A DNA stretch of 64,000 nt from Candidatus Enterousia sp. (GTDB taxonomy: Bacteria; Pseudomonadota; Alphaproteobacteria; Rs-D84), in the NCBI GenBank assembly GCA_045646625.1, contig JAZRLB010000004.1, positions 2,323 through 66,322 on the forward strand, written 5' to 3'. This document shows, piece after piece, positions 5,665 through 53,039 of this stretch. The translations under genes were made by a program, and so were the position numbers. The notes under the pieces were generated by a model. That model did not search any database and was not told the DNA's origin. It was given only the letters and a program-made list of their open reading frames with translations. Every line of letters begins with the position of its first letter. The first letter of the stretch is position 1.

Positions 5665-6561
5665 TTATTTTTTAAATTCCAGGCCCTGGTCGGTATAATT
5701 TTCAGCCTTGTCTTCCCAGTCCGGTTCAACACGCACAAACAGGTGCAAGCGCGCATTCACCCCCCACTGGTCCTGAATATCGTGACGGGCAGCCATACCA
5801 ATCTGTTTCAATTGTGCGCCACCACGCCCAACAACAATCTTTTTATGTCCTTCGTTGCGGACCGCAATTTTTTGATAAATATCCAAGACACCATCAGCAT
5901 CAACATCAACACGTTCAGTGACAACATTGATATGATATGGCAATTCCTGATGAATGTATTTATAAATCTTTTCACGGGTCAATTCCGCCAGATACAATTC
6001 ATCGGGCACATCAGGCGCATCGGTCGGGTCAAACAAGTATGGGCTTTCCGGCATAACATTCGCCAGCGCAGTCAACATTTTTTCAATCCCATCATTTTTC
6101 AATGCAGAAATCATAAAGATTTCAGCCCACGGTGCCAATGAATTTAATTCCGCAACCATTGGCAGCAATTCCAGTTTAGCAATTGCATCAACCTTGTTCA
6201 ATGCGACAAAAATATTTGGACGGTCGGCAATTTTTTGAGCCAAGGCACGAATTGTTTCGGTAACACCCTTTTGCGCGTCAACCAACAACAACACCGCATC
6301 TGCATCAGATACCGCATCCATAGCGGCGGCAACCATCGCCCGATCCAAACGACGCGAAGGTTTAAAAACCCCGGGGGTATCAACGAATACCAGTTGTTTT
6401 TCACCAACCATTTTGACGGCACGCAGACGGGTGCGCGTGGTCTGAACCTTGTGCGAAACAATGGATACTTTACGTCCCATAATTTGGTTTAACAATGTAC
6501 TTTTGCCCGCGTTCGTCGGGCCGATAATGGCAACAAAGCCGGAATATGTTTTTTCTGTCAT
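5665..6561 (-). CDS. era: GTPase Era
   Basis: G1 motif GPTNAGKST, DTPG, NKVD, KH domain at C-terminus; start set at MTEKTYSGFVAIIG (ATG at 6561) rather than the upstream-extended ORF to 6705. Confidence 0.9.
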   Translation of the reverse strand: MTEKTYSGFVAIIGPTNAGKSTLLNQIMGRKVSIVSHKVQTTRTRLRAVKMVGEKQLVFVDTPGVFKPSRRLDRAMVAAAMDAVSDADAVLLLVDAQKGVTETIRALAQKIADRPNIFVALNKVDAIAKLELLPMVAELNSLAPWAEIFMISALKNDGIEKMLTALANVMPESPYLFDPTDAPDVPDELYLAELTREKIYKYIHQELPYHINVVTERVDVDADGVLDIYQKIAVRNEGHKKIVVGRGGAQLKQIGMAARHDIQDQWGVNARLHLFVRVEPDWEDKAENYTDQGLEFKK

Positions 6562-6662
6562 AACAAAAAGTGTATCACAACAATTTGAAAAGTAAACAAA
6601 AACGTTGCAAATTCGCAGATTTGTGCTAAATCTGAACTTATAAGAAAACAAAGGATTTTTAT

Positions 6663-7370
6663 ATGCAATTAACAGGTCCAGAAATTCTGCGCAGAATGAC
6701 CGCAAAAGGAAAGCCTGATATTATTATTGAACCGTTTGATTTAAGATGTCTGGGCAGCAACAGTTATGACTTACACTTGGCAGACACACTGCGCATTTAC
6801 AAGCACACATTGCCGATTGGTATGAAACCTGCAATCGAATACAAAGGCAGCAGATTTTTGCACTCTATGGCTGACTGGTTCAACGATAAAGAATCATACG
6901 AATTATACACAAAGCATCCCGAACACTATGACATTCGGAATCCGGAACGTCTTGTTGACCCAACCAACCCCAAACATCACGAAACAATCGACATAAAAAT
7001 ACCCGAAACGGGTCTGATTTTGTCACCAGATATCGGCTATCTGGGATCGACAGTGGAATATACAGAAACACGCAACTTGTTCCCGTATATTGACGGAAAA
7101 TCCAGTGTTGGACGCAATTTTATCTTAAATCACCACACCGCCGGTCGTGGTGACGATGGTTTCTGTGGGGAATGGACATTGGAAATCCGCGTACTGTACC
7201 CAACGGTTGTTTATCCATATATGCGAATTGGTCAGATTTACTATGAAAAATTTGCTGGCAATCGCATGCCATACGATAAAAACCCGAACAGTCACTATAA
7301 TGCACAACGCGGTCCAACGGCAGCAGCAGTCATTCCGATTGATAATTTCTTGAAAGATAAACAAAGATAA
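6663..7370 (+). CDS. dcd: dCTP deaminase family protein
   Basis: MQLTGPEILRRM...SYDLHL N-terminus typical of Dcd/dUTPase-fold deaminases; longer (235 aa) than E. coli Dcd. Confidence 0.75.
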   Translation: MQLTGPEILRRMTAKGKPDIIIEPFDLRCLGSNSYDLHLADTLRIYKHTLPIGMKPAIEYKGSRFLHSMADWFNDKESYELYTKHPEHYDIRNPERLVDPTNPKHHETIDIKIPETGLILSPDIGYLGSTVEYTETRNLFPYIDGKSSVGRNFILNHHTAGRGDDGFCGEWTLEIRVLYPTVVYPYMRIGQIYYEKFAGNRMPYDKNPNSHYNAQRGPTAAAVIPIDNFLKDKQR

Positions 7371-7602
7371 AAAAATTGACAAAAACCACTTGACAATTTT
7401 TTATTTGTAATTATATTTTATACGTAATCTTTGGTTCCCCGGTCGGGGCGGGCTGCCGAGACAGATGGCAAGTCGGGGTGTTTGTATCTTAACAGATGCC
7501 TGAATGTACACTGTGAATTGATTTTATCGCAGTGAACCAATCAACAAAAAAACAAAATATTAACATACAGCAAAGTGCGGCGATTAAGTTCGCAGCGCTT
7601 GG

Positions 7603-8295
7603 TTGATTGCAAAGGAGGATAAAATGAATTTTAAATGGACATTAAGTTATGTTATTGCAGGCGCAGGAATCTTGTCTAGTCCAACCACAGGCTCTGTCAA
7701 CAACACAAAAAACTTTGAAGCAGCCGGTAAAAAAATCGAACTGCGTAAAGACAGCATCCAGAAATTAGACACCGGCAGCGCCACACCACGTGTTTTAAGC
7801 TGCGAATCTCAGGGCAAAGACGTATTGTACAAATATGACAATGGCCAGGTTTCCAGACGCAGTGGCGGAACACGCGCCTGGCGCAACTGCAATCCAGGCA
7901 ATTTGAGACTGACACCATTTTCACGCGAAAATGGCGCAATCGGCAAAGCTGGCGGGTTCGCTGTTTTCCCAGACGTAGAGACAGGTCGTCGCGCATTGGG
8001 GAACTTGTTGCGTTCCGAAAACTATATTAACAAGACAATTCGCGCAGCAATTTATAAATATGCGCCACCACATGAAAACAATGTCGCGTCATATAATCGC
8101 CAGCTGATTAAATTGACAGGTTTGGACATCAACAAAAAAATCAGTTCCTTGACTGGGAAACAGTTGGAATCGGTTATAAATGCAATTTGTGTTGTCGAAG
8201 GATGGCGCGAAGGCAAGGAGACAGTTTGTGTTCAAGCAAATACAAACAAACGTCCAGAAATGTTGTTGGCACAGGCGAATATACGCACACGATAA
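7603..8295 (+). CDS. hypothetical secreted protein (RAWRNCNPGNLR motif)
   Basis: 230 aa; hydrophobic N-terminal segment; no confident family assignment. Confidence 0.5.
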   Translation: MIAKEDKMNFKWTLSYVIAGAGILSSPTTGSVNNTKNFEAAGKKIELRKDSIQKLDTGSATPRVLSCESQGKDVLYKYDNGQVSRRSGGTRAWRNCNPGNLRLTPFSRENGAIGKAGGFAVFPDVETGRRALGNLLRSENYINKTIRAAIYKYAPPHENNVASYNRQLIKLTGLDINKKISSLTGKQLESVINAICVVEGWREGKETVCVQANTNKRPEMLLAQANIRTR

Positions 8296-10796: not shown

Positions 10797-11550
10797 ATTC
10801 TGATATTTCCGAGTCGGTATTTTCAGCGCGACCCTCGACTGCGCGCGCAACCGTTTCCAGTTGCAACAACTGGTTTTCCAACGCTGCGCGTTCTGATGAT
10901 TTATAACCTGTTTCTTGGTCTGATTTGACCGTTGCAGTTTCATTCGTAGTCACTTCTTTATTCTTGGTGCCAGATATCGCAGGATTAATCAAGTTATTAT
11001 AAATCTCTATCGCCTGATGCGTGCCAGCCATATCGCGCGCTAACAACTTGTTCTCAGGACCAGGAAAGAACCAATCATCCAATTTTACCGCGGTTATCTG
11101 CATAATTGGACGTGTGCGCGACTGGGCCAGCCATTTTGGCAAAAACGGCATATCAGAATAATACCACAGCGCACCCCAGTAAAATATCCCCATCACGACA
11201 ACACCACGAACAATACCAAAGATTACCCCCAAGGTTTTGTCGGTGACGTTCATAATACTGTCCTGGATTTTATCGCGCAGTTTCTGATTCAAAAACCCAA
11301 CCAGTATTAAAACCGCAAAGAATATGATAAAATAGGATGCGACCAACGTGCCAACCGTCGATTCAGACAAATCAAACCAGGACTGTAAAATACCATCCAA
11401 CCAAGGTGATGCGAAACGCGCAGAAATCGCCGCCACAACCCAAGACAATGTCGCAATCGTTTCATAAACGCCACCACGAATTGTCGCCCAAATTGTGGAC
11501 GCCAATATGGCGCCCACATATACATAATCAAGTGCAGTTAAATCAAACAT
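10795..11550 (-). CDS. cvpA: CvpA-family (colicin V production) membrane protein
   Basis: Four predicted TM helices in first 150 aa with CvpA-like topology, charged C-terminal tail. Confidence 0.65.
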   Translation of the reverse strand: MFDLTALDYVYVGAILASTIWATIRGGVYETIATLSWVVAAISARFASPWLDGILQSWFDLSESTVGTLVASYFIIFFAVLILVGFLNQKLRDKIQDSIMNVTDKTLGVIFGIVRGVVVMGIFYWGALWYYSDMPFLPKWLAQSRTRPIMQITAVKLDDWFFPGPENKLLARDMAGTHQAIEIYNNLINPAISGTKNKEVTTNETATVKSDQETGYKSSERAALENQLLQLETVARAVEGRAENTDSEISE

Positions 11551-11570
11551 ATTTTCCCCAGACTAGGTGA

Positions 11571-12161
11571 TTATTTCTTGTTGTCTTTGCGAACCAATAC
11601 ATAACCCAAGCCCGCAACCAAGACAATCAACAGACCCCAGAACCAGATTGTGCTGCCGCCATTTTCATTTTTTTTTGCGACTTCTTCTGTTTCTGCAACT
11701 TCGACCGCAGCGGCATTGTATTCGACAACTGCGTTTGCGCGATCTGAATGTTCTGACTTAAATTTTTCCGCATCTTCTGACATAGCTTTTTTATTTTCAG
11801 CTGCAGCTGCTTTTTGTTCATCAGACATATCCGCTTCGACGTGACCACGCAATGTGTCCTGCATAAAATCCGCATACCCCTGTTCGCATTTGTCACCAAT
11901 TACCAATACAGGGACCCCACCAGATTCAAATTCACATTTTTTCAATGCATCACGGAACATAGGCAAATTCGCTTCGTCCATTACATTAACAGCTGTCACC
12001 TTTAATTCTGGGTACTCGTAGACCAAGGTGTTAGAAATAAATTCACGCGCGTGGTGGCAATGTGGACAGGATGGTGAATAATATATCGTGACGTCTGCAG
12101 CAGATGCAGCACCAGCAAATGTTAAACCCATAACAGCAGATAAAAGTGATAATTTTTTCAT
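11571..12161 (-). CDS. periplasmic thioredoxin/glutaredoxin-fold protein (CPHC) with signal peptide and C-terminal TM anchor
   Basis: ATG at 12161 preceded by AAAGGAG; signal peptide MKKLSLLSAVMGLTFAGAASA; CPHC active-site motif; GVPVLVIG; acidic linker; C-terminal hydrophobic helix. Confidence 0.7.
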   Translation of the reverse strand: MKKLSLLSAVMGLTFAGAASAADVTIYYSPSCPHCHHAREFISNTLVYEYPELKVTAVNVMDEANLPMFRDALKKCEFESGGVPVLVIGDKCEQGYADFMQDTLRGHVEADMSDEQKAAAAENKKAMSEDAEKFKSEHSDRANAVVEYNAAAVEVAETEEVAKKNENGGSTIWFWGLLIVLVAGLGYVLVRKDNKK

Positions 12162-12294
12162 ATTTAATACTCCTTTCAATGGTTCGATTATAGAAAATAT
12201 TTTTATAAACGCGCAAGCAATTTTTAATAAAATTTTCCTGTTGAAAAAAATACAATATCAAACACAATATATTGTAAAAAAAAGGAGGTAATTT

Positions 12295-12882
12295 ATGTTT
12301 ATGCTGGCAGACTTTCCATTACCATACGCTTCAAATGCATTGGAACCATACATTTCACAAGAAACAATCGAAACGCATCACGGGAAACACGTTGCAGGAT
12401 ATATAAATAACCTGAATAATCTGATTGCGAATACACCGTATGAGTCTGTATCACTTGTGGACATAATTCAAAATTCTGCAGGCAACCCCGATGAACAAAA
12501 GATATTTAATAACGCAGCCCAGGTTTATAATCACGATTTCTTCTTTCACGGAATGTGCCCAAAATGTACCGCAGATATCCCAAATGAAATAATTGAACAA
12601 TTCGGCAGCGCAGAAAATTTTAAAAAGCAATTTAAAGATGCCGCCACAAGTGTCTTTGGCAGTGGATATACGTGGCTGGTGCGAGATGGTGATGAACTTC
12701 GAATTATAAACACCGCGAACGCGGACACGCCAATTGCACACAATATGAAACCAATTTTGAACATTGATGTTTGGGAACACGCATACTATTTAGACTATAA
12801 AAATAAACGCGCAGATTTTATCGATTCATTCTTGGATAATTTGGTAAACTGGGATTTCGTTGCAGAAAATTTAAACAAATAA
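12295..12882 (+). CDS. sodB: Fe/Mn superoxide dismutase
   Basis: LPYASNALEPYIS...HHGKH...DVWEHAYY signature residues. Confidence 0.9.
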   Translation: MFMLADFPLPYASNALEPYISQETIETHHGKHVAGYINNLNNLIANTPYESVSLVDIIQNSAGNPDEQKIFNNAAQVYNHDFFFHGMCPKCTADIPNEIIEQFGSAENFKKQFKDAATSVFGSGYTWLVRDGDELRIINTANADTPIAHNMKPILNIDVWEHAYYLDYKNKRADFIDSFLDNLVNWDFVAENLNK

Positions 12883-43699: not shown

Positions 43700-44227
43700 A
43701 TGGCAGACAAAACAACAAAAAAAACAACAGTTAAAAAGACTGCAACTAAACCTGCAGCTACAAAGAAACCTACTGTAAAAAAAACAACAGCAAAAAAAGC
43801 ACCTGTAAAAAAAATGACGGCGCCTGTTGAAGATAAATTCCCATGTGGCTGTGACAAGGGCTGCGCTTGTGGCGGCGATTGCGTATGCGCAAAAAAGAAA
43901 TGTACATTCGGCCGCTTTTTGAAAAAATTAATTTTGGTTTTGATTATTTTTGCATTGGGATTTGCATCCGCCAAAATGTGCTGCTGTCACAAGCGTGCAA
44001 AAATGGGTCCACGTCCAATGTTTGAAAACGGATGCCTGGTCGTAAAATGCGAAAAGATGGCTGAAAAAGTTGCTGCGATGGACACAAATGCAGACGGATG
44101 CGTCACACGCGAAGAATTCAAAGCGGCGCGCAAACATATGAAGCGTGCACCACAAGAAGTTGCAGAACAGCCTGTGGCCGCAGAATCAGCGCCAGAGATG
44201 CCGGAAACACCGGAAATGGATGACTAG
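43700..44227 (+). CDS. hypothetical small membrane protein: Lys/Thr-rich histone-H1-like N-tail, Cys-cluster, TM helix, EF-hand, acidic C-tail
   Basis: KKTTVKKTATKPAATKKPTVKK; CGCDKGCACGGDCVCAKKKC; LILVLIIFALGFASA; DTNADGCVTREE (canonical EF-hand loop). Confidence 0.5.
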   Translation: MADKTTKKTTVKKTATKPAATKKPTVKKTTAKKAPVKKMTAPVEDKFPCGCDKGCACGGDCVCAKKKCTFGRFLKKLILVLIIFALGFASAKMCCCHKRAKMGPRPMFENGCLVVKCEKMAEKVAAMDTNADGCVTREEFKAARKHMKRAPQEVAEQPVAAESAPEMPETPEMDD

Positions 44228-44856: not shown

Positions 44857-44932
44857 GGCCCCATCGTCTAGAGGCCTAGGACACCGCCCTTTCAAGGCGA
44901 GAACACCGGTTCGAATCCGGTTGGGGCTGCCA
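44857..44932 (+). tRNA. tRNA-Glu (anticodon UUC)
   Basis: GGCCCCATCGTCTAGAGGCCTAGGACACCGCCCTTTCAAGGCG...GGTTCGAATCCGG...CCA; anticodon loop CTTTCAA. Confidence 0.9.
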
Positions 44933-44940
44933 AAATAAAC

Positions 44941-44970
44941 AAATCGGGTTTTATACCCGATTTTTCTTTG
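44941..44970 (+). terminator. intrinsic terminator after tRNA-Glu
   Basis: aaatcgggttttatacccgattt + ttctttgtttt. Confidence 0.6.
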
Positions 44971-45055
44971 TTTTCCAATACTTTCAGCGGTTCGTAAGTC
45001 GGGTGTTAAAAATCACCACGATTTCGCACATTTACGAACTTTTCATGAAAATACT

Positions 45056-46819
45056 TTATACACCGTGCTGTTCTCCTGAACTATCAATATCTTTGGTAAT
45101 AATTATTTTAGAAACAGCGTTTGTTCCTTTTTTAATTTTTCTAGTCTTAGTTTCTATCAACTCTTTTTTGTATTCTTTAAACCAAGCCTGTAATTCACTT
45201 ACCGAATCAAAATATCTGCCAGACTCACTCGGAAAATATTCTCGCGCTTTTGGCAACCCTTCCAATGACTCTAAGTTTTCTGCACAGAAAGAGAAAAGAC
45301 CTCCTATTTCTTTTGGCGCCCCCTTCAAAGATTTTAATTTATTTCCTTCGGAGCACAAAAAATTTCTCCCAACCCTTCTTGGGCTCCCATATAATGTAAT
45401 CAACTGATTACCTCTACATATAAAATCATCCGCAACCTCCTCCGGTCCACCACTTAGGCTTGTCAATTTATTATGTTCACAACCAAAGGTACCGTTGATT
45501 ATTTTTGGCGCCCCTTTCAATGTGGTTAATTCATTAAAATCACAATAAAAAGACCTTCCAACATATTCTGGCGCACCGTGTAGCGATGTTAATTTATTAC
45601 CGCGTATATAAAAATATCCATCAACTAATTTTGGGAACCCTTCTAAAGACTCTAACACCCCATCAATAATCCTAATATCACCCGTAATTTTTAATTTGGA
45701 TATATTTGGAAAATGCGAAATCTCAATCTTTTGAAAACAGATTGCTGGAATTTCTGTGCCAGATGCCAAATCTACTATATTTTTTATATTACCATCGTTG
45801 TCTATAACGTACAACTGCCCACTTCTGCAAAATACAACTCCCGCATCCATAGGATCAAAGGTTTTGTTTTCATCAAATCTTTTTTGCGGGATTAAGGACA
45901 ATTTTTTCTGACGAATAAAATAATTTTTCGTCATCCCAAAAGCATCATCAAATTCACGAGACAGTGTTGCCATGTTATTTTTATATCTACATGTTCTAGG
46001 GGAAATGGATTTTTGCAAATTCCATGGCAGCCCTTTACGAGATACAAAATTTATACAATGCGGATAAGTTTCATATTCTTTACCATATAACAAGATAGGT
46101 TTATTTCCTAATTTCATTATAAAAATATCATTGTCTGTACGTATCGATTCATCGTGATATTTATCCGAAAGATCTAATGGAAAAAAAGATACCTCTATAC
46201 CATTTAACACGCTTCTAAAACAATATTTACCGATATCTCCTGGCATATCAAACCACCACCAAAGCCCCGCAGAGGCATCAACATATCTAATTCTTATATT
46301 AAAATATTCATAAAATCGTTTTCTAAAAACATATCCCTGGTCAGCATATACTTTTTCCTCGTCATAAACTGATTGCCCTGCTTCATCGTCCCACAAAAAT
46401 AAGCATCTTAAAAAAATACTTGTTTTGATACAATAATTGAACAATGTCAGCGCATCCTGCTTTGTTAACGAAACATCTGGTTTGTTAAAATTGTTCACAA
46501 TTCTGCTGATGTTTTTTTCTAACTCAATCGAACTTCTGTCATTGCAATCTTTATGAACAGCAACCATAAATTCAGATTCTATTTTTGAAAAGACCTTCTT
46601 TTCGCCCGTAGCACTTTTCGCAGCAAACCTGGAGTAAATATGTTCAAAATTTACACTACCGTTTTTAATATCTTCTTCAGTGTACGAGTTGCCACAAAAA
46701 GGACACGTGCCATATACGCCATCGGAAATACCGACACGATAGCCCTTTGCATTCCCTTTTTCATCACGATACAATTCTGGTTTTTTATTTTTCATAATTA
46801 GTACTATATCATAAAACAC
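45056..46819 (-). CDS. hypothetical 587-aa protein: N-terminal HNH-like zinc-finger motif, central region, C-terminal about seven 22-residue LxSLxGAPxxVxGxFxCxxNxL repeats
   Basis: GTCPFCGNSYTEEDIKNGSVNFEHI; repeats KLTSLHGAPEYVGRSFYCDFNE / LTTLKGAPKIINGTFGCEHNK / LTSLSGGPEEVADDFICRGNQ etc.; AT-rich coding sequence. Confidence 0.6.
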   Translation of the reverse strand: MFYDIVLIMKNKKPELYRDEKGNAKGYRVGISDGVYGTCPFCGNSYTEEDIKNGSVNFEHIYSRFAAKSATGEKKVFSKIESEFMVAVHKDCNDRSSIELEKNISRIVNNFNKPDVSLTKQDALTLFNYCIKTSIFLRCLFLWDDEAGQSVYDEEKVYADQGYVFRKRFYEYFNIRIRYVDASAGLWWWFDMPGDIGKYCFRSVLNGIEVSFFPLDLSDKYHDESIRTDNDIFIMKLGNKPILLYGKEYETYPHCINFVSRKGLPWNLQKSISPRTCRYKNNMATLSREFDDAFGMTKNYFIRQKKLSLIPQKRFDENKTFDPMDAGVVFCRSGQLYVIDNDGNIKNIVDLASGTEIPAICFQKIEISHFPNISKLKITGDIRIIDGVLESLEGFPKLVDGYFYIRGNKLTSLHGAPEYVGRSFYCDFNELTTLKGAPKIINGTFGCEHNKLTSLSGGPEEVADDFICRGNQLITLYGSPRRVGRNFLCSEGNKLKSLKGAPKEIGGLFSFCAENLESLEGLPKAREYFPSESGRYFDSVSELQAWFKEYKKELIETKTRKIKKGTNAVSKIIITKDIDSSGEQHGV

Positions 46820-46931
46820 CTAAAAAATCTTTTACTTCTTTCCCAAATAACAATAAATCGCGGATAAAAGCTGTTAGTGGATTGCACCAGTCGCCTGCCT
46901 CAAAAAAAATCAAAACCACCAACAGGTGACT

Positions 46932-47684
46932 TTATTCCGATATTTTATTGCCACGGTCATCATAGTCCAGATAATTCCATTTTTTATCTTCGGCCACAGT
47001 AGCAAAACAACAATATAATTCTGGATCACAATTTTCAGAATATGTCCGACCCGCACAAAACTCGCTGGGCCCCAAACAAAATTCCCGGGCAAAATCCCTG
47101 GGGTAGCCGGCTGCAACCTTAGTTTCCACGCATTCCCTGGCGATTTCAAGCCGCAAACTATCCTCGTCTGGCATAGAAGAAAAAACAAACATTCCCAGCA
47201 AAATTAACCCGCACCATACGCAAGCAATAACAAATGAGATTTTTGATAAAATGTCGGAACATGTATTTTTTCTTGCCCTTGTATTCCTGGTAGTTTTTAT
47301 AAGGCAGATAACTGATACAATTATTAATATTATGTCTATAACATCTATTAATCTGGGGAAATTATCATAGAATACACCTAGCCCCTGTAATGACCAGTAC
47401 AAGCCAACGCCACACAAGAATATAAGCACAATATACGGCAACCTGTAATCACGGCATATCAACCTTGCAATTGCAAAAATCGGCAATACAAGAAAAAAAC
47501 CAATCGTCAAAAACGTCAGCCATCTGGTTCCTGAATCACACACAGAAAATACAGCAAGACAAACGCCCAGCCCAAACAAAAGGCCGGCTAATATATACTT
47601 AACCCATTCATACCAGCCCCACAATTTGATGTGCGCAACTAATTGCTTAAAGTATTTTTTGATAAACATAATTTCATCCTGCAC
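46932..47684 (-). CDS. hypothetical membrane protein with Cys-rich C-terminal domain
   Basis: 4-5 TM helices then CVETKVAAGYPRDFAREFCLGPSEFCAGRTYSENCDPELYCC. Confidence 0.45.
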   Translation of the reverse strand: MQDEIMFIKKYFKQLVAHIKLWGWYEWVKYILAGLLFGLGVCLAVFSVCDSGTRWLTFLTIGFFLVLPIFAIARLICRDYRLPYIVLIFLCGVGLYWSLQGLGVFYDNFPRLIDVIDIILIIVSVICLIKTTRNTRARKNTCSDILSKISFVIACVWCGLILLGMFVFSSMPDEDSLRLEIARECVETKVAAGYPRDFAREFCLGPSEFCAGRTYSENCDPELYCCFATVAEDKKWNYLDYDDRGNKISE

Positions 47685-47728
47685 GCTTTTTAGATTTGTA
47701 AATCTTTGACATACCCCGCCCGACGCAC

Positions 47729-49056: not shown

Positions 49057-49629
49057 TCAACAATAAACGTGGAATAAAACACACCAATTTGCATCCGTCA
49101 GTTCCGTTTTGGTGCCCATATCACGGTGACAAGCCCAGTATTTTTGCGCCCCAACCATCAGACGGATATTAAGGCCGTTTTTATCAACAAAGCAATTTAT
49201 GCGCGGGCAATCATATTCCCCAACCCCAAACGCCCAAACCACATCACCGGCGACATAGCCGGCTTCGTCATTCTGACAAATAAGCGCGGCACGTACAAAA
49301 TGGGGCATTTGTTCACCACCAAACACATAATTTAGGTGTGCAGTTTTTGAATTTATGGGAACAGGCATAGTTTCGGTCACAGTAAATGGCGTGGGCGCGT
49401 GTTTAGCAAATAAATCAGACCACATTTCATCAGGAACCGCTGTTATATCAAATGTTCCGGTGTTGGTTGCCGCATCATCCGCGCGACGCAGTGCAAACCC
49501 GCCCAGCGTTTCGCCATCGTGAATGCGCAAAGTTTTTGCATCAATATCCATTGTTATTTCACCAGGCAGTCCGGTAAAATCGTTGTTTTGTGCGGCGGTG
49601 CCGCGTCTTATTTGAAGTACACGTGTCAT
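49057..49629 (-). CDS. hypothetical protein with phage tail-fibre-type N-terminal motif
   Basis: Start MTRVLQIRRGTAAQNNDFTGLPGEITMDIDAKTLRIHDGETLGG resembles the conserved N-terminus of phage/GTA tail fibre proteins; AAGGA SD upstream. Confidence 0.5.
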   Translation of the reverse strand: MTRVLQIRRGTAAQNNDFTGLPGEITMDIDAKTLRIHDGETLGGFALRRADDAATNTGTFDITAVPDEMWSDLFAKHAPTPFTVTETMPVPINSKTAHLNYVFGGEQMPHFVRAALICQNDEAGYVAGDVVWAFGVGEYDCPRINCFVDKNGLNIRLMVGAQKYWACHRDMGTKTELTDANWCVLFHVYC

Positions 49630-49650
49630 AAGTAATCCTTTTTTCATGAA

Positions 49651-49677
49651 AATAAAAAGCCCGCCAGTTGGCGGGGC
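49651..49677 (-). terminator. intrinsic terminator for gene ending at 49750
   Basis: cccgcc-agtt-ggcggg hairpin followed by T-run on minus strand. Confidence 0.55.
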
Positions 49678-49749
49678 AAAAAAACAAACGCCATCGTTCC
49701 CGATGACGCATGTGTGTATTATAGCATAAATTAACAAAAAAATCAAGTA

Positions 49750-50481
49750 TTAGCGTATAATTTGCGCTGTACGATTTATCAGCGTTTGTCGAACAGTTTG
49801 TTGTCGGCCACCACACATCGGCCAAGCAGTGCATGACACATCGCATATCGTGCCATTTGCAGTGACCGTCAGATTCCGGATAAGCGTGCTGTACATCCTG
49901 ACTGGGGCAAGTATGCGATTTACATCCCGTATATCCTCGTCCCTTTGTTTATTCCACCATTTAAGATTTGTTTCATTGCGATACTCCAGAGAGTACCTGG
50001 CTTTACGTTCCTCTTCTTCCATGGTTTCCTTTATAAATTCTTTGGAGTATGGTTCCAATTTGTGCACCTCTCCCTGTAATACACGCAGTTGTTCGTATAT
50101 ATGCTTGTACTTTTCATAATGTCTGGCAAGGTCAGCTTCCTTGGATGAGAAAGAAAAAATCCAAGAAAGTTTTTCATAGCCTTCTGCATCTTCTAGCAAC
50201 GCGCCCTTGATAAGAATAGAACGGTGCCGTTTTTTAAAATCTTCCAGGCGTTGTTTCGCGACAACATACAAAGGTTCCGTTTGTATGTGTTTTGTTCGCA
50301 AATCATTTCGCAAACGGGCAAGTTCGGCACTAACGTTTACTTCGCCTGAATATTTTTGTTGATAGATATTCTGTAATTTGGATATCGCCTGGGAATATTT
50401 TACATATTCGGAATAAGAAATCTCTTTGAAGACGAAAGTGCCAAGATTGCCAACCGCATAAGGAATGCGAATAGTAGTCAT
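49750..50481 (-). CDS. hypothetical protein (about 243 aa, helical, Glu/Lys-rich centre)
   Basis: ORF with probable start MTTIRIPYAVG; no family recognised. Confidence 0.45.
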   Translation of the reverse strand: MTTIRIPYAVGNLGTFVFKEISYSEYVKYSQAISKLQNIYQQKYSGEVNVSAELARLRNDLRTKHIQTEPLYVVAKQRLEDFKKRHRSILIKGALLEDAEGYEKLSWIFSFSSKEADLARHYEKYKHIYEQLRVLQGEVHKLEPYSKEFIKETMEEEERKARYSLEYRNETNLKWWNKQRDEDIRDVNRILAPVRMYSTLIRNLTVTANGTICDVSCTAWPMCGGRQQTVRQTLINRTAQIIR

Positions 50482-50555
50482 AATCAACCCCTTTTGGGGA
50501 TTATTACACACGGCATCCAATTGTCAACAGATTTAGCGCACAACGGCCCAGCATC

Positions 50556-52928
50556 TTAGGCGGCGATAGAATGCGAACTGTTATAGTCGGCAATTAGGGT
50601 ACTTACCTGGCCATTAAAACGCTTTTGTGCGTTTTTCGCACTAAGATTTCTGAACCAATTGTACATAGGCCCGGTTTTGGTGTTTCGCCCTGTTTCCAAC
50701 ATATTCCAGTATTTAACCAATTCTTCCAAATCATCAACATGAGTGGCATCCCAATTGCGCACTTCTTCTTCATGGCGTGTTATCTGTTCGTTTAATTGAT
50801 CCAGCAATTCTTGACCATTTACTAGATGTTCTAACAGTCTTTGTCTTGTACCCAGTCGTCTTCTGTTCAGTTTCAGGGTTGGGAAACCGGTTTCTATGGC
50901 GTCCAGGTGGGCCTGCAACGGCGCGCCGGTACCGGTCAGTGTTGGCTTTGGTTTCAAAGTGTCTGAATTAATTGAGTCCAGGAAATCACTCACCGCTTCG
51001 TATTCAGTTTGATTCGCGATCGGATCCCATGCGCCACCACCGGTCACATTATTGTATGTTTGGGCCAAGGCGGTTCTCAATGCCTGAACATTCGCAGCGC
51101 AGAAAGTGTCTATGGCGGTTATGTATCCTTGGATGTCATGTTCCATGTTTGCTTTTGCAACGTCGTACGTATGTCCACGACGAATTCTGTCAACGGTGGC
51201 TTGGGTTGTGGCTTGTTGTGCGCGTTCACTGGTCAGCAACCTTTCAAGCGCCACCTTGTCGGCGGCCTGTTTGTCTAAATAGGCGTTGTGTTCGGCCGCG
51301 AAATTTCCACTTTTATCAGAATATTGTTTGATTTTGCTGCCTGACAGGTTTATCGCATTACCAACCATAGTTATGCCATAGCCAATACCCATAAGTGCGG
51401 TTTTGATACCTTTGTCCAACGCTTTGGTGACAACCTGCATTCCTTCGTTTTTATTCCATGACAATTTGTCGTGGGAAAAGATGCTTAGTTTTTCTTTGCC
51501 CAGGGCATCCATAATCTTGCTGGTGGTATAGTCGTAATGTAATACGGAAATCAGTTCCAATGCGGTCTTGGCTTCGTCCTTTTTGCCTTCTTTGATTGCG
51601 CGTATCATGATTTCTTTGACCAAAGCCTGCATATGCGTGCCATTTTTCAAAGCACCGGCCCAGACCTTGGATATTTTTGGGTCGTTTTTCAATGCGTTCA
51701 GCGTTTTGTCAAACCATTCAAGATGCTTTTTTGCTTTGAACTCGCGCGCACCCTGCAATTTGTCTTTTGCGTTGCCGATGTTTTTTAATACACCATCCAG
51801 ACCGTCCGTTTTTTTCAGTCCTTTGCGCAAATGCTTGCAAATTGCTTTGGCTTCTGGCGAAAAAAACAACTCGTCGCCTTTGAGTTTTGCATATTTTTCC
51901 AGGCAGTCAGAATATGTATCACCCCACCATTCAGACAAGCGTTCCGGCAAGGTCAGAGTATCTTCGCGCTTCGGCTGCACATAATCTTCACTTTTTGGAT
52001 CGTCGTATGATTGATTCTTTATCGCCTTGTTCAACGGCCCAGAAATTTTACCGTCATCGTATTGTTCAAAAACTTCGCGAACTTTTGAATCGCGCCGAAG
52101 CGTATCTAACAAAGTTCTGTATTCGTGTTTGAATTGTTCCAGACGAAATACCGAGATATTATCGTCATCAAACCACGCGGAAGTATCGCTGCAATCTGGG
52201 ATTTCTGATGGATTTGTAATCCCCAGACGTTGTTGCATGGTTGTGTCACCCGCGATATAACCGTCAATAACCTGAGCAACTTTTTCCAGGTTCTTTCTGA
52301 ACTTTGGGTTTTTGTTATATTTTTCCGAGACAATTCCACCCAACAAATCATCATATGAAAAATCGTCAGTCAACAATCCCCAGTTTTTTAATTGCAACTC
52401 TAAACGATTTTTATACTTGGTCAAAAAACCATGAAGTGTAACCGCCGTTGAGCCAGCAGGGGCTGGACCAATTTTTTGCTTGCCGGCGGCGGTCGCCTTG
52501 GTGTATTGGAACAAATGGTGGATGGTCGTTGTACCAGATGTATGCGAACCAAAGTACGTGTCCAGGAATTTTGTGGCCTTGTCATTATACTTGAAATCCT
52601 TCCGGGCCCCATCCATTGACTGAAAGGCGCTCTGAAAGGCCTTGAACATTTTTTTCCATTCTTTGTCGTCGGCCCCCAGATACATTTCATCGGCGGGGTC
52701 CTCTGGGTCGGGCAAAGCCTTCTGTATATAAATATTCGTTTCAGGAACGGTTTCAAATTCACCGGTTGCGGGGTTTTTCTTTAATAATTCTTCCGCCCAG
52801 ATTTTCTGGTTGTCGGTCGCCTTTTTATCCCGGATATAGCCACAAAATTGCACAAATTGCTCGTGCGACATTTCACGAAATATCAGCCTGTTGTAATAAG
52901 CTGTCAAAAAATCTTTCATATTAGCCAT
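50556..52928 (-). CDS. large hypothetical protein (about 790 aa), no signal peptide, Lys/Asp-rich, effector-like
   Basis: Probable start MANMKDFLTAYY; no family recognised; co-oriented with preceding gene. Confidence 0.5.
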   Translation of the reverse strand: MANMKDFLTAYYNRLIFREMSHEQFVQFCGYIRDKKATDNQKIWAEELLKKNPATGEFETVPETNIYIQKALPDPEDPADEMYLGADDKEWKKMFKAFQSAFQSMDGARKDFKYNDKATKFLDTYFGSHTSGTTTIHHLFQYTKATAAGKQKIGPAPAGSTAVTLHGFLTKYKNRLELQLKNWGLLTDDFSYDDLLGGIVSEKYNKNPKFRKNLEKVAQVIDGYIAGDTTMQQRLGITNPSEIPDCSDTSAWFDDDNISVFRLEQFKHEYRTLLDTLRRDSKVREVFEQYDDGKISGPLNKAIKNQSYDDPKSEDYVQPKREDTLTLPERLSEWWGDTYSDCLEKYAKLKGDELFFSPEAKAICKHLRKGLKKTDGLDGVLKNIGNAKDKLQGAREFKAKKHLEWFDKTLNALKNDPKISKVWAGALKNGTHMQALVKEIMIRAIKEGKKDEAKTALELISVLHYDYTTSKIMDALGKEKLSIFSHDKLSWNKNEGMQVVTKALDKGIKTALMGIGYGITMVGNAINLSGSKIKQYSDKSGNFAAEHNAYLDKQAADKVALERLLTSERAQQATTQATVDRIRRGHTYDVAKANMEHDIQGYITAIDTFCAANVQALRTALAQTYNNVTGGGAWDPIANQTEYEAVSDFLDSINSDTLKPKPTLTGTGAPLQAHLDAIETGFPTLKLNRRRLGTRQRLLEHLVNGQELLDQLNEQITRHEEEVRNWDATHVDDLEELVKYWNMLETGRNTKTGPMYNWFRNLSAKNAQKRFNGQVSTLIADYNSSHSIAA

Positions 52929-53039
52929 AATCGCACCTTTAACTATCCTGTTTATTATAGTGTAAATTTGACAAAATTTCAATATTTTCTGTACTTTTTT
53001 TGTGGATTTTGGTTATATTTTTCTTGGAAAGGACGATTT

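Follow-up and report, generated by a model that had tools for sequence, protein, structure and literature searches.

Nucleases of the HNH_5/HNH_4 type, to which the HNH domains of Cas9 and IscB, EcoKMcrA, and Cap5 belong, combine a CxxC knuckle, a strand ending in (E/D)H, a second strand, and a helix carrying (C/H)xxC-N. Short-period leucine-rich repeats (LRRs) with a Cys/Asn ladder position are shared by Internalin-J of Listeria and by IpaH and SspH of Shigella/Salmonella, which are secreted or surface virulence factors provided with signal or type III secretion system sequences. Unrelated genes placed between the same non-coding boundaries, arrayed and in varying order, are found in integron cassettes and in the minimal mobile elements of Neisseria. 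Here, a gene of Candidatus Enterousia sp. (assembly GCA_045646625.1) is described that bears likeness to all of these. It lies within a stretch of 64,000 nt (contig JAZRLB010000004.1, positions 2,323–66,322 of the forward strand; referred to as the window, with positions counted from its first nucleotide), next to a tRNA-Glu gene, and its product, designated HNH-LRR protein, joins an HNH-like domain to a middle domain and a series of LRRs. As far as library searches and a scan of literature titles show, the combination of HNH and LRR with a fold-orphan middle domain, its narrow distribution, and its setting between two conserved boundary elements (termed U and D) are new, while HNH and LRR domains as such are known; the architecture is contained in no library model, and no title (only titles were considered) suggested an HNH-LRR fusion.

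The HNH-LRR gene (labeled X) occupies positions 45056..46795 on the minus strand and encodes 579 aa plus stop. The initial annotation had reported a 587-aa protein from the open reading frame (ORF) listed at 45056–46819 (minus strand), which runs on to a GTG at 46819. The reading frame itself stands; its start does not, because this GTG sits within the gene's own promoter, and because an internal ATG at 46795 is the start in an identical database protein and in all 23 aligned homologs. No meaningful match to the protein was obtained with the models of Pfam, NCBIfam, PHROGs, or PADLOC, neither a transmembrane (TM) segment nor a signal peptide was predicted, and paralogs are not present within the window. 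The earlier statement that the protein belongs to no recognizable family thus holds for direct matches to library models, but not beyond, since both its HNH and its LRR kind could be reached via homologs. Judged from its sequence, HNH-LRR protein is cytoplasmic and three-part, consisting of an HNH domain, a β-rich middle domain, and an LRR domain with a Lys-rich tail. We tentatively regard it as a candidate for a one-protein device against invading DNA, in which an LRR sensor would be combined with an HNH effector.

The N-terminus (aa 1–105; 46481..46795, minus strand) was accepted as a divergent HNH-type nuclease domain of the beta-beta-alpha-metal kind because of its motifs and of transitive profile matches. 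Three motifs are discernible on the minus strand, CPFCG (aa 31–35; 46691–46705), NFEH (aa 49–52; 46640–46651), and HKDCN (46541–46555). Invariant across the alignment are C31xxC34, N49-x-E51-H52, [H/C]81-K-x-C84-N85, and E93, which include two zinc-ligand pairs, C31xxC34 and H81xxC84, position 81 being Cys in relatives P0124, P0127, P0129, and P0024. His52 of NFEH and Asn85 of HKDCN are invariant in 24 full-length and seven remote homologs, and the alignment to the HNH_5 and HNH_4 motifs suggests that they are catalytic/metal-binding residues. A profile of aa 1–372 picked up three relatives (P0124, P0127, and P0129; ∼410–430 aa, without LRR) that match aa 28–134 at 1e-12 to 1e-15 and score 27.4–29.1 bits on Pfam HNH_5 (gathering threshold 27.5). 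With the motifs present, the ligands conserved, and remote homologs reaching the HNH_5 threshold, the HNH-like zinc finger that had been proposed initially from CPFCG...FEHI was supported. When the N-termini of 21 members were scanned separately, HNH_4 (11/21) and HNH_5 (9/21; best 8.8e-8) were the commonest families. One distant member, P0128, weakly matched the Cas9 HNH region, which was the only match to PADLOC-DB 2.0 for HNH-LRR protein, its neighbor, or its relatives. The core is followed by a long helix (aa 106–140; 46376..46480, minus strand; helix 112–139 in the AlphaFold2 model) with conserved K124 and L129, the conservation of which reaches remote HNH_5 relatives.

The elements of HNH_5/HNH_4-type nucleases named above are recognizable in the sequence and predicted structure of HNH-LRR protein, and its matches to their models and folds are weak. 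It differs from them by a helical insert of ∼24 residues between the strands, by a His in place of the third zinc Cys, by Pfam scores below threshold, and by its fusion to an unknown middle domain and LRRs. The AlphaFold2 model presents the elements in the order strand 48–52, strand 77–81, helix 82–102, the insert separating the two strands. A Foldseek comparison of the predicted N-terminal part with the PDB returned no match, and sequence-profile searches of the PDB with aa 1–372 and aa 1–140 returned only noise. The predicted fold is, therefore, consistent with an HNH domain but no proof of it. That the domain might be a non-catalytic zinc-finger module, acting as scaffold or regulator via LRR contacts, or that the protein might be a housekeeping DNA-processing factor that is merely AT-rich, might be argued from relative P0122, which has lost the cysteines, and from the otherwise housekeeping character of the window genome around the gene. 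We consider this improbable: the presumed catalytic His and Asn are invariant in the 24 homologs, no other part of the protein is as conserved as the HNH region, one relative lacks the gene in its syntenic slot, and a family as tiny as this one (22 proteins among 1.84 billion representatives with the profile of aa 1–372) fits a housekeeping role poorly.

The β-rich middle domain (aa 141–372, ∼230 aa; 45680..46375, minus strand) is family-specific; no relative outside the family was detectable, and no structural match was found. It contains the stretch LWWWFDMPGD (aa 178–187; 46235–46264, minus strand), which had been noticed before as a tryptophan cluster and is indeed present, although its triple-W is lineage-specific and not conserved among homologs. 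It is followed by seven LRRs (aa 373–520; 45236..45679, minus strand) with the consensus NxLxSLxGxPxxVxGxFxCxx. About seven units of 22 residues had been annotated; the number was correct, the period was not, as autocorrelation peaks at a shift of 21 only (28% identity versus ≤10% at other shifts), the seven units themselves spanning aa 378–520. The LRR-like nature of the repeats, also proposed at the outset, is corroborated by matches of the C-terminal 217 aa to the LRR of Internalin-J (E 2.3e-4) and of IpaH7.8 (E 2.5e-3) among PDB sequences. When searched with Pfam, the window protein yields no LRR match at E ≤ 1; its homologs carry Pfam LRR_4, and for distant HNH-LRR members, NCBIfam models gave matches at 1e-12 to 1e-14 (InlJ) and at 1e-10 (SspH2). 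The C-terminal region, as its sequence and that of its relatives suggest, is thus an LRR domain composed of seven genuine repeats. The tail (aa 521–579; 45059..45235, minus strand) begins with a conserved helix (ELQAWFKEYKK) and has a Lys-rich end. Every HNH-LRR relative has kept it, even distant ones such as P0128 and P0130, and it is missing from relatives that have only the LRR. The latter comprise ∼100 database proteins, many with LRR_4, the N-termini of which are unrelated (PcfJ-like or unknown).

The repeat signature LxSLxGxPxxVxGxFxCxxN is closest to that of multi-copy LRR proteins of huge phages. Paralogs from Lak megaphages, a 735-kb uncultured phage, and Vibrio jumbo phages are 37–48% identical to HNH-LRR protein over aa 366–530, but lack the HNH and middle domains. 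The 21-residue module occurs in multiple copies in the huge phages PP083314, LR756501, and the MK2500xx Lak phages, and at up to 11 places in the 735-kb phage; in metagenomic proteins, it is also fused to PcfJ-like domains. A viral origin of the whole gene was considered and rejected because no viral contig encoding the N-terminal 372 aa was found. The single viral match to the pattern of the D element (L029; L numbers denote loci related to the window) lies inside a coding region of 54% GC and was dismissed as chance.

The LRR of HNH-LRR protein is of the InlJ/IpaH/SspH2 type, typical of virulence effectors, and a secreted effector was what the initial annotation had envisaged. In this case, the LRR would bind a protein of a host cell or a competitor, the HNH domain would act as a toxin through DNase activity, and secretion or transfer would be signaled by the Lys-rich tail. 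The hosts of the family are reduced-genome, probably partner-dependent gut bacteria (PMC12306168). Elsewhere, the LRR module occurs in fusions with PcfJ-like domains (as named in Pfam), and the source of one such protein labels it a conjugal transfer/entry exclusion protein; the basic C-terminal tail is both conserved and confined to HNH-LRR proteins; and alleles turn over quickly. A delivered effector or toxin is nevertheless unlikely, and the initial idea was not upheld: HNH-LRR protein has, in contrast to Internalin-J, IpaH, and SspH, neither signal peptide nor type III secretion sequence, nor does it have a TM segment, and genes for secretion systems were not seen among the window genes examined or in related loci. 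A conserved adjacent immunity gene, which an active DNase toxin would need, is also lacking. Furthermore, the placement of the toxin domain in polymorphic toxins is unlike the N-terminal one observed here.

A sensor module of a defense system, which the initial annotation had also considered, is plausible. A ligand-gated nuclease is preferred because it best accounts for how an active DNase is tolerated in cells that have no immunity protein for it. What the LRR domain recognizes would be a protein, most plausibly one of an invading phage or another mobile element. Until this ligand is bound, the LRR, perhaps together with the middle domain, would keep the HNH domain inactive or untargeted; binding of the foreign protein would release or direct it, and DNA would be cut. 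Such a sensor-effector would need neither a partner nor an immunity gene. The pattern of conservation is sensor-like. Mean pairwise identity is highest in the HNH domain (72%), followed by the LRR (53%) and the middle domain (43%); within the LRR, scaffold positions are 75–100% conserved across orthologs and the x positions around FxCxxN, which are presumably exposed at the surface, are hypervariable. That the nearest relatives of the LRR reside in huge gut phages would fit a phage–host interface without proving it. A similar logic, ligand sensor and nuclease in one polypeptide encoded at a variable, exchanged locus, may be shared with Cap5 (SAVED-HNH) and with those Avs/bacterial NLR-like proteins that have a nuclease as effector and repeats as sensor; the analogy is functional only, as HNH-LRR protein has no SAVED domain, no STAND/NACHT ATPase, and no PADLOC match.

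Several observations weigh against such a defensive role. The window protein remains under every Pfam HNH threshold (HNH_4, 14.2 bits versus 22; E 0.044), it is matched by no PADLOC or NCBIfam model, and no known defense gene is adjacent to it. It also lacks an NTPase switch domain, which known bacterial NLR-like sensors possess. The genes sharing its cassette setting (encoding a nucleotidyltransferase, GNAT, GDSL lipase, DUF805, and bPH_2) are atypical of defense, and a rapid turnover of alleles is equally expected of effectors or selfish genes. The role of LRR-gated nuclease is, therefore, proposed with less than even confidence.

The locus provides information on how the HNH-LRR gene is inherited. 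Its stop codon is separated by 124 nt from a convergent tRNA-Glu gene (anticodon UUC; 44857..44932, plus strand; ARAGORN, Rfam tRNA 56 bits), which anchors a variable slot. Between the two lies the hairpin of a bidirectional intrinsic terminator (44941..44963, both strands; terminator scan), and the HNH-LRR gene, with its own promoter and flanking terminators, forms a separate transcription unit. The shift to AT-rich DNA beside tRNA-Glu, noticed at first reading, was confirmed: GC is 0.33–0.35 over 45–47 kb versus a mean of 0.437 for the window. The gene has the lowest GC of all window ORFs (0.345 versus 0.438 ± 0.031 for 48 ORFs, ∼3 standard deviations under the mean), and its GC at third codon positions is 0.284 versus 0.427 ± 0.045. 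Across loci, the GC of the gene is constant (0.32–0.36), while that of flanking genes spans 0.34–0.43. Its surroundings in the window are housekeeping (FtsH, TilS, LpxB, GroEL, AckA, RecG, and transporters of the MFS type).

A check of its presence in relatives had been proposed. In locus L025 (META protein 80% identical), membrane protein, bPH_2, tRNA-Glu, and META follow in order and the bPH_2 gene fills exactly the slot of the HNH-LRR gene. The alleles do not follow their hosts either. GyrA of L015 and L024 is 93.6% identical, the HNH-LRR alleles at the same locus only 47.6%, and the L015 allele is nearer (∼55%) to alleles of the other tRNA-Glu context. Because of its deviant composition, its presence or absence among relatives, and the incongruence of allele and host, the HNH-LRR gene is accessory and horizontally exchanged, with allele replacement at the locus. 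The acquired islet of the initial annotation thus stands as far as an accessory gene is concerned; it does not stand as a tRNA-integrated island. The locus is not a classical tRNA island, because neither an integrase nor an att repeat was found. An integrase was seen neither among the neighboring genes (META, membrane protein, AckA, GroEL, and other housekeeping genes) nor in related loci. The direct repeat of the tRNA-Glu 3′ end for which a search had been proposed is not present in the 64-kb window (no exact match of at least 11 nt; no further copy of the last 30 nt with ≤7 mismatches), and an att repeat in the window was, thus, rejected.

A convergent tRNA-Glu gene downstream of the HNH-LRR gene was encountered in most contexts recovered; in nine further loci, it follows the homologous gene at a distance of 28 nt to 2.5 kb, with UUC or CUC as anticodon. 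tRNA-Glu(CUC) stands after gyrA-MerR with gaps of 28–174 nt (L024, L002, and L015). For tRNA-Glu(UUC), the gaps are 0.12 kb (window), ∼0.3 kb (L006), ∼1.1 kb (L008, L021, and L023), 1.8 kb (L001), and 2.5 kb (L007). The tRNA gene is absent in L011 and L012–L014, and also in L022, there apparently by deletion. In two loci only, L015 (9757–9777) and L016 (5087–5107), a 21-nt copy of the 3′ end of tRNA-Glu(CUC) is found 4 nt from the HNH-LRR stop, with the intact tRNA ∼150 nt away; an earlier integration or excision event at the tRNA appears to have left it as a scar.

The accessory nature of the gene is explained by the two boundary elements, which bracket exchangeable genes. The D element, the conserved 3′ boundary (44963..45044, ∼80 nt, minus strand; nhmmer profile), consists of invariant inverted arms, AGTTCGTAA and TTACGAACT, around a variable ∼36 nt, and is followed by the terminator. 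The U element, the conserved 5′ boundary (46803..46900, or 46808–46900 in a narrower delimitation, ∼90 nt, minus strand; nhmmer profile), ends in an extended −10 promoter, TGATATAGT (46803–46811), 7 nt before the ATG. In the U copies, the conserved extended −10 box is TGATATAAT, ∼7 nt before the start codon, a spacing that suggests a leaderless or near-leaderless HNH-LRR transcript. With nhmmer, 29 U and 20 D copies were detected in 15 non-redundant related loci, all U copies being on the gene strand and the D copies as well, except for one weak palindromic reverse match; the 64-kb window holds exactly one of each. U/D elements were named in the window and in L001, L002, L006, L007, L008, L021–L023, L022, L025, and L026. 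Neither element matches an Rfam family. D was considered as an RNA structure and rejected, because only its invariant outer arms pair, without covariation and without an Rfam match. It was likewise rejected as an attC site, because pairing is confined to these invariant arms and the GTT...AAC boxes stand in reverse order.

Genes bracketed by U and D encode a nucleotidyltransferase and GNAT pair, GDSL lipase, DUF805, bPH_2, and small unknown proteins. They form arrays by the HNH-LRR gene, mostly between it and tRNA-Glu, some upstream. Where the window has U, HNH-LRR gene, and D, L025 has U, bPH_2, and D; a nucleotidyltransferase cassette (75% identity) precedes the HNH-LRR gene in L002 and follows it in L007. 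The unit is, thus, a single-gene accessory cassette comprising U with its promoter, the gene, D, and the terminator. It sits in the core chromosome of a gut alphaproteobacterium with a reduced genome, flanked by a membrane-protein gene and tRNA-Glu(UUC). Unlike in integrons, the arrays are anchored at tRNA-Glu, and each cassette is equipped with a promoter instead of being promoterless; an integron integrase (IntI) was not seen, and D does not resemble attC. Recombination at the repeats that form the U and D boundaries, rather than a tRNA-targeting integrase, would account for spread and replacement of the gene.

An HNH nuclease within such cassettes could also serve itself, cutting the tRNA-Glu flanks or the U/D inverted repeats and thereby promoting its own insertion in a homing-like manner, or cassette shuffling. 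The contexts in which the gene adjoins tRNA-Glu are unrelated and involve two different tRNA genes (UUC and CUC), its allele tree conflicts with both context and host GyrA, and it is the sole member common to the multi-gene U/D loci L001, L007, L008, L021–L023, and L022. Arms that are invariant and do not covary, like those of D, would be expected of a protein-binding site, and the copies of the tRNA-Glu 3′ end in L015 and L016 lie close to the gene's stop. On the other hand, U/D cassettes without the HNH-LRR gene are present in L025 (±6 kb) and L026 (5.5-kb contig), L011 and L012–L014 have neither tRNA-Glu nor full U and D, and plain homologous recombination between the repeats would equally explain the shuffling. 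Free-standing HNH homing enzymes are, moreover, far smaller, and the LRR here is a protein-binding, not a DNA-binding module. A selfish or cassette-servicing nuclease is, consequently, quite unlikely. More far-reaching, and very improbable, is the notion that U and D constitute an undescribed integrase-less cassette platform at tRNA-Glu in reduced-genome gut bacteria of the order Rs-D84, for which HNH-LRR protein, as the resident found most constantly, nicks AGTTCGTAA/TTACGAACT to drive capture and shuffling, as a functional analog of the integron integrase.

The organism-labeled full-length relatives of HNH-LRR protein, the preferred reading of which remains that of a gated nuclease, belong to Alphaproteobacteria of the gut or rumen that have not been cultured, among them Ca. 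Enterousia (order Rs-D84). Genomes of this order measure ∼0.75–1.0 Mb (PMC12306168). The metagenome scan contributed just three short loci, which lack tRNAs. No neighboring gene is conserved across contexts; the HNH-LRR gene alone is common to the loci. A conserved partner gene was rejected, because the 245-aa membrane protein of the window and the ∼250–260-aa genes upstream of homologs are mutually unrelated. Locus L011, from a sheep-gut alphaproteobacterial metagenome-assembled genome, contains two diverged HNH-LRR paralogs (6001–7851 and 11085–12389) within 5 kb, without tRNA-Glu nearby. A GNAT acetyltransferase gene begins 2–8 nt after the HNH-LRR gene in L013 (2053–2583) and L027 (2455–3006), lineages without the tRNA-Glu/U/D setting; no similarity was detectable between these two GNATs. 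As the GNATs downstream in these two loci and nearby in L002 and L007 are mostly dissimilar, they were not treated as part of an operon. Upstream of the HNH-LRR gene, a fusion of a phage Mu-F-like head domain and a lysozyme of the GH108 or phage type, in some cases extended by a peptidoglycan-binding domain, is encoded in one genomic context, in L007 (4298–5500), L008 (4603–5823), L021 (3640–4860), and L023 (558–1700). It is missing from the strain variant L022, whose HNH-LRR protein is identical.

Upstream of the HNH-LRR gene in the window lies the membrane-protein gene (46932..47669, minus strand; 245 aa, ∼5 predicted TM segments, Cys-rich tail). The initial annotation had rightly recognized this Cys-rich membrane protein but counted it to the islet, to which it does not belong: it is outside the cassette because it is kept in relatives without the HNH-LRR gene, its homologs adjoining the same slot in L025 and L026. 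It forms a transcription unit separate from the HNH-LRR gene, with its own terminator (46911–46934), and its GC (0.394) is only mildly low. Further along, directly upstream of ackA, a 229-aa protein (49057–49746, minus strand) matches Mtd_N, the N-terminal domain of the phage major tropism determinant (E 4.6e-12; tail protein in PHROGs). Next to it, 256-aa and 808-aa proteins without family match are encoded at 49750–50520 and 50556–52982 (minus strand). Because the listed ackA ORF overlaps the end of the Mtd_N gene, ackA probably starts at a later Met. On the other side, just after groEL, an odd 175-aa protein is encoded (43700–44227, plus strand), the N-terminus of which is rich in Lys and Thr and resembles histone H1; it further contains a Cys-rich stretch and a single hydrophobic segment and weakly matches EF-hand.

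If HNH-LRR protein is indeed an LRR-gated HNH nuclease, it would represent a minimal, NTPase-free sensor-effector that links bacterial LRR sensing directly to DNA cleavage, and it would do so in genomes of less than 1 Mb that keep very few accessory genes. That the closest relatives of its LRR module are found in huge gut phages hints at phage–host exchange or an arms race. The U/D cassettes at tRNA-Glu, in turn, may be how reduced genomes still swap accessory genes without integrases, and their arrays make the survival of flexible gene content during genome reduction testable.

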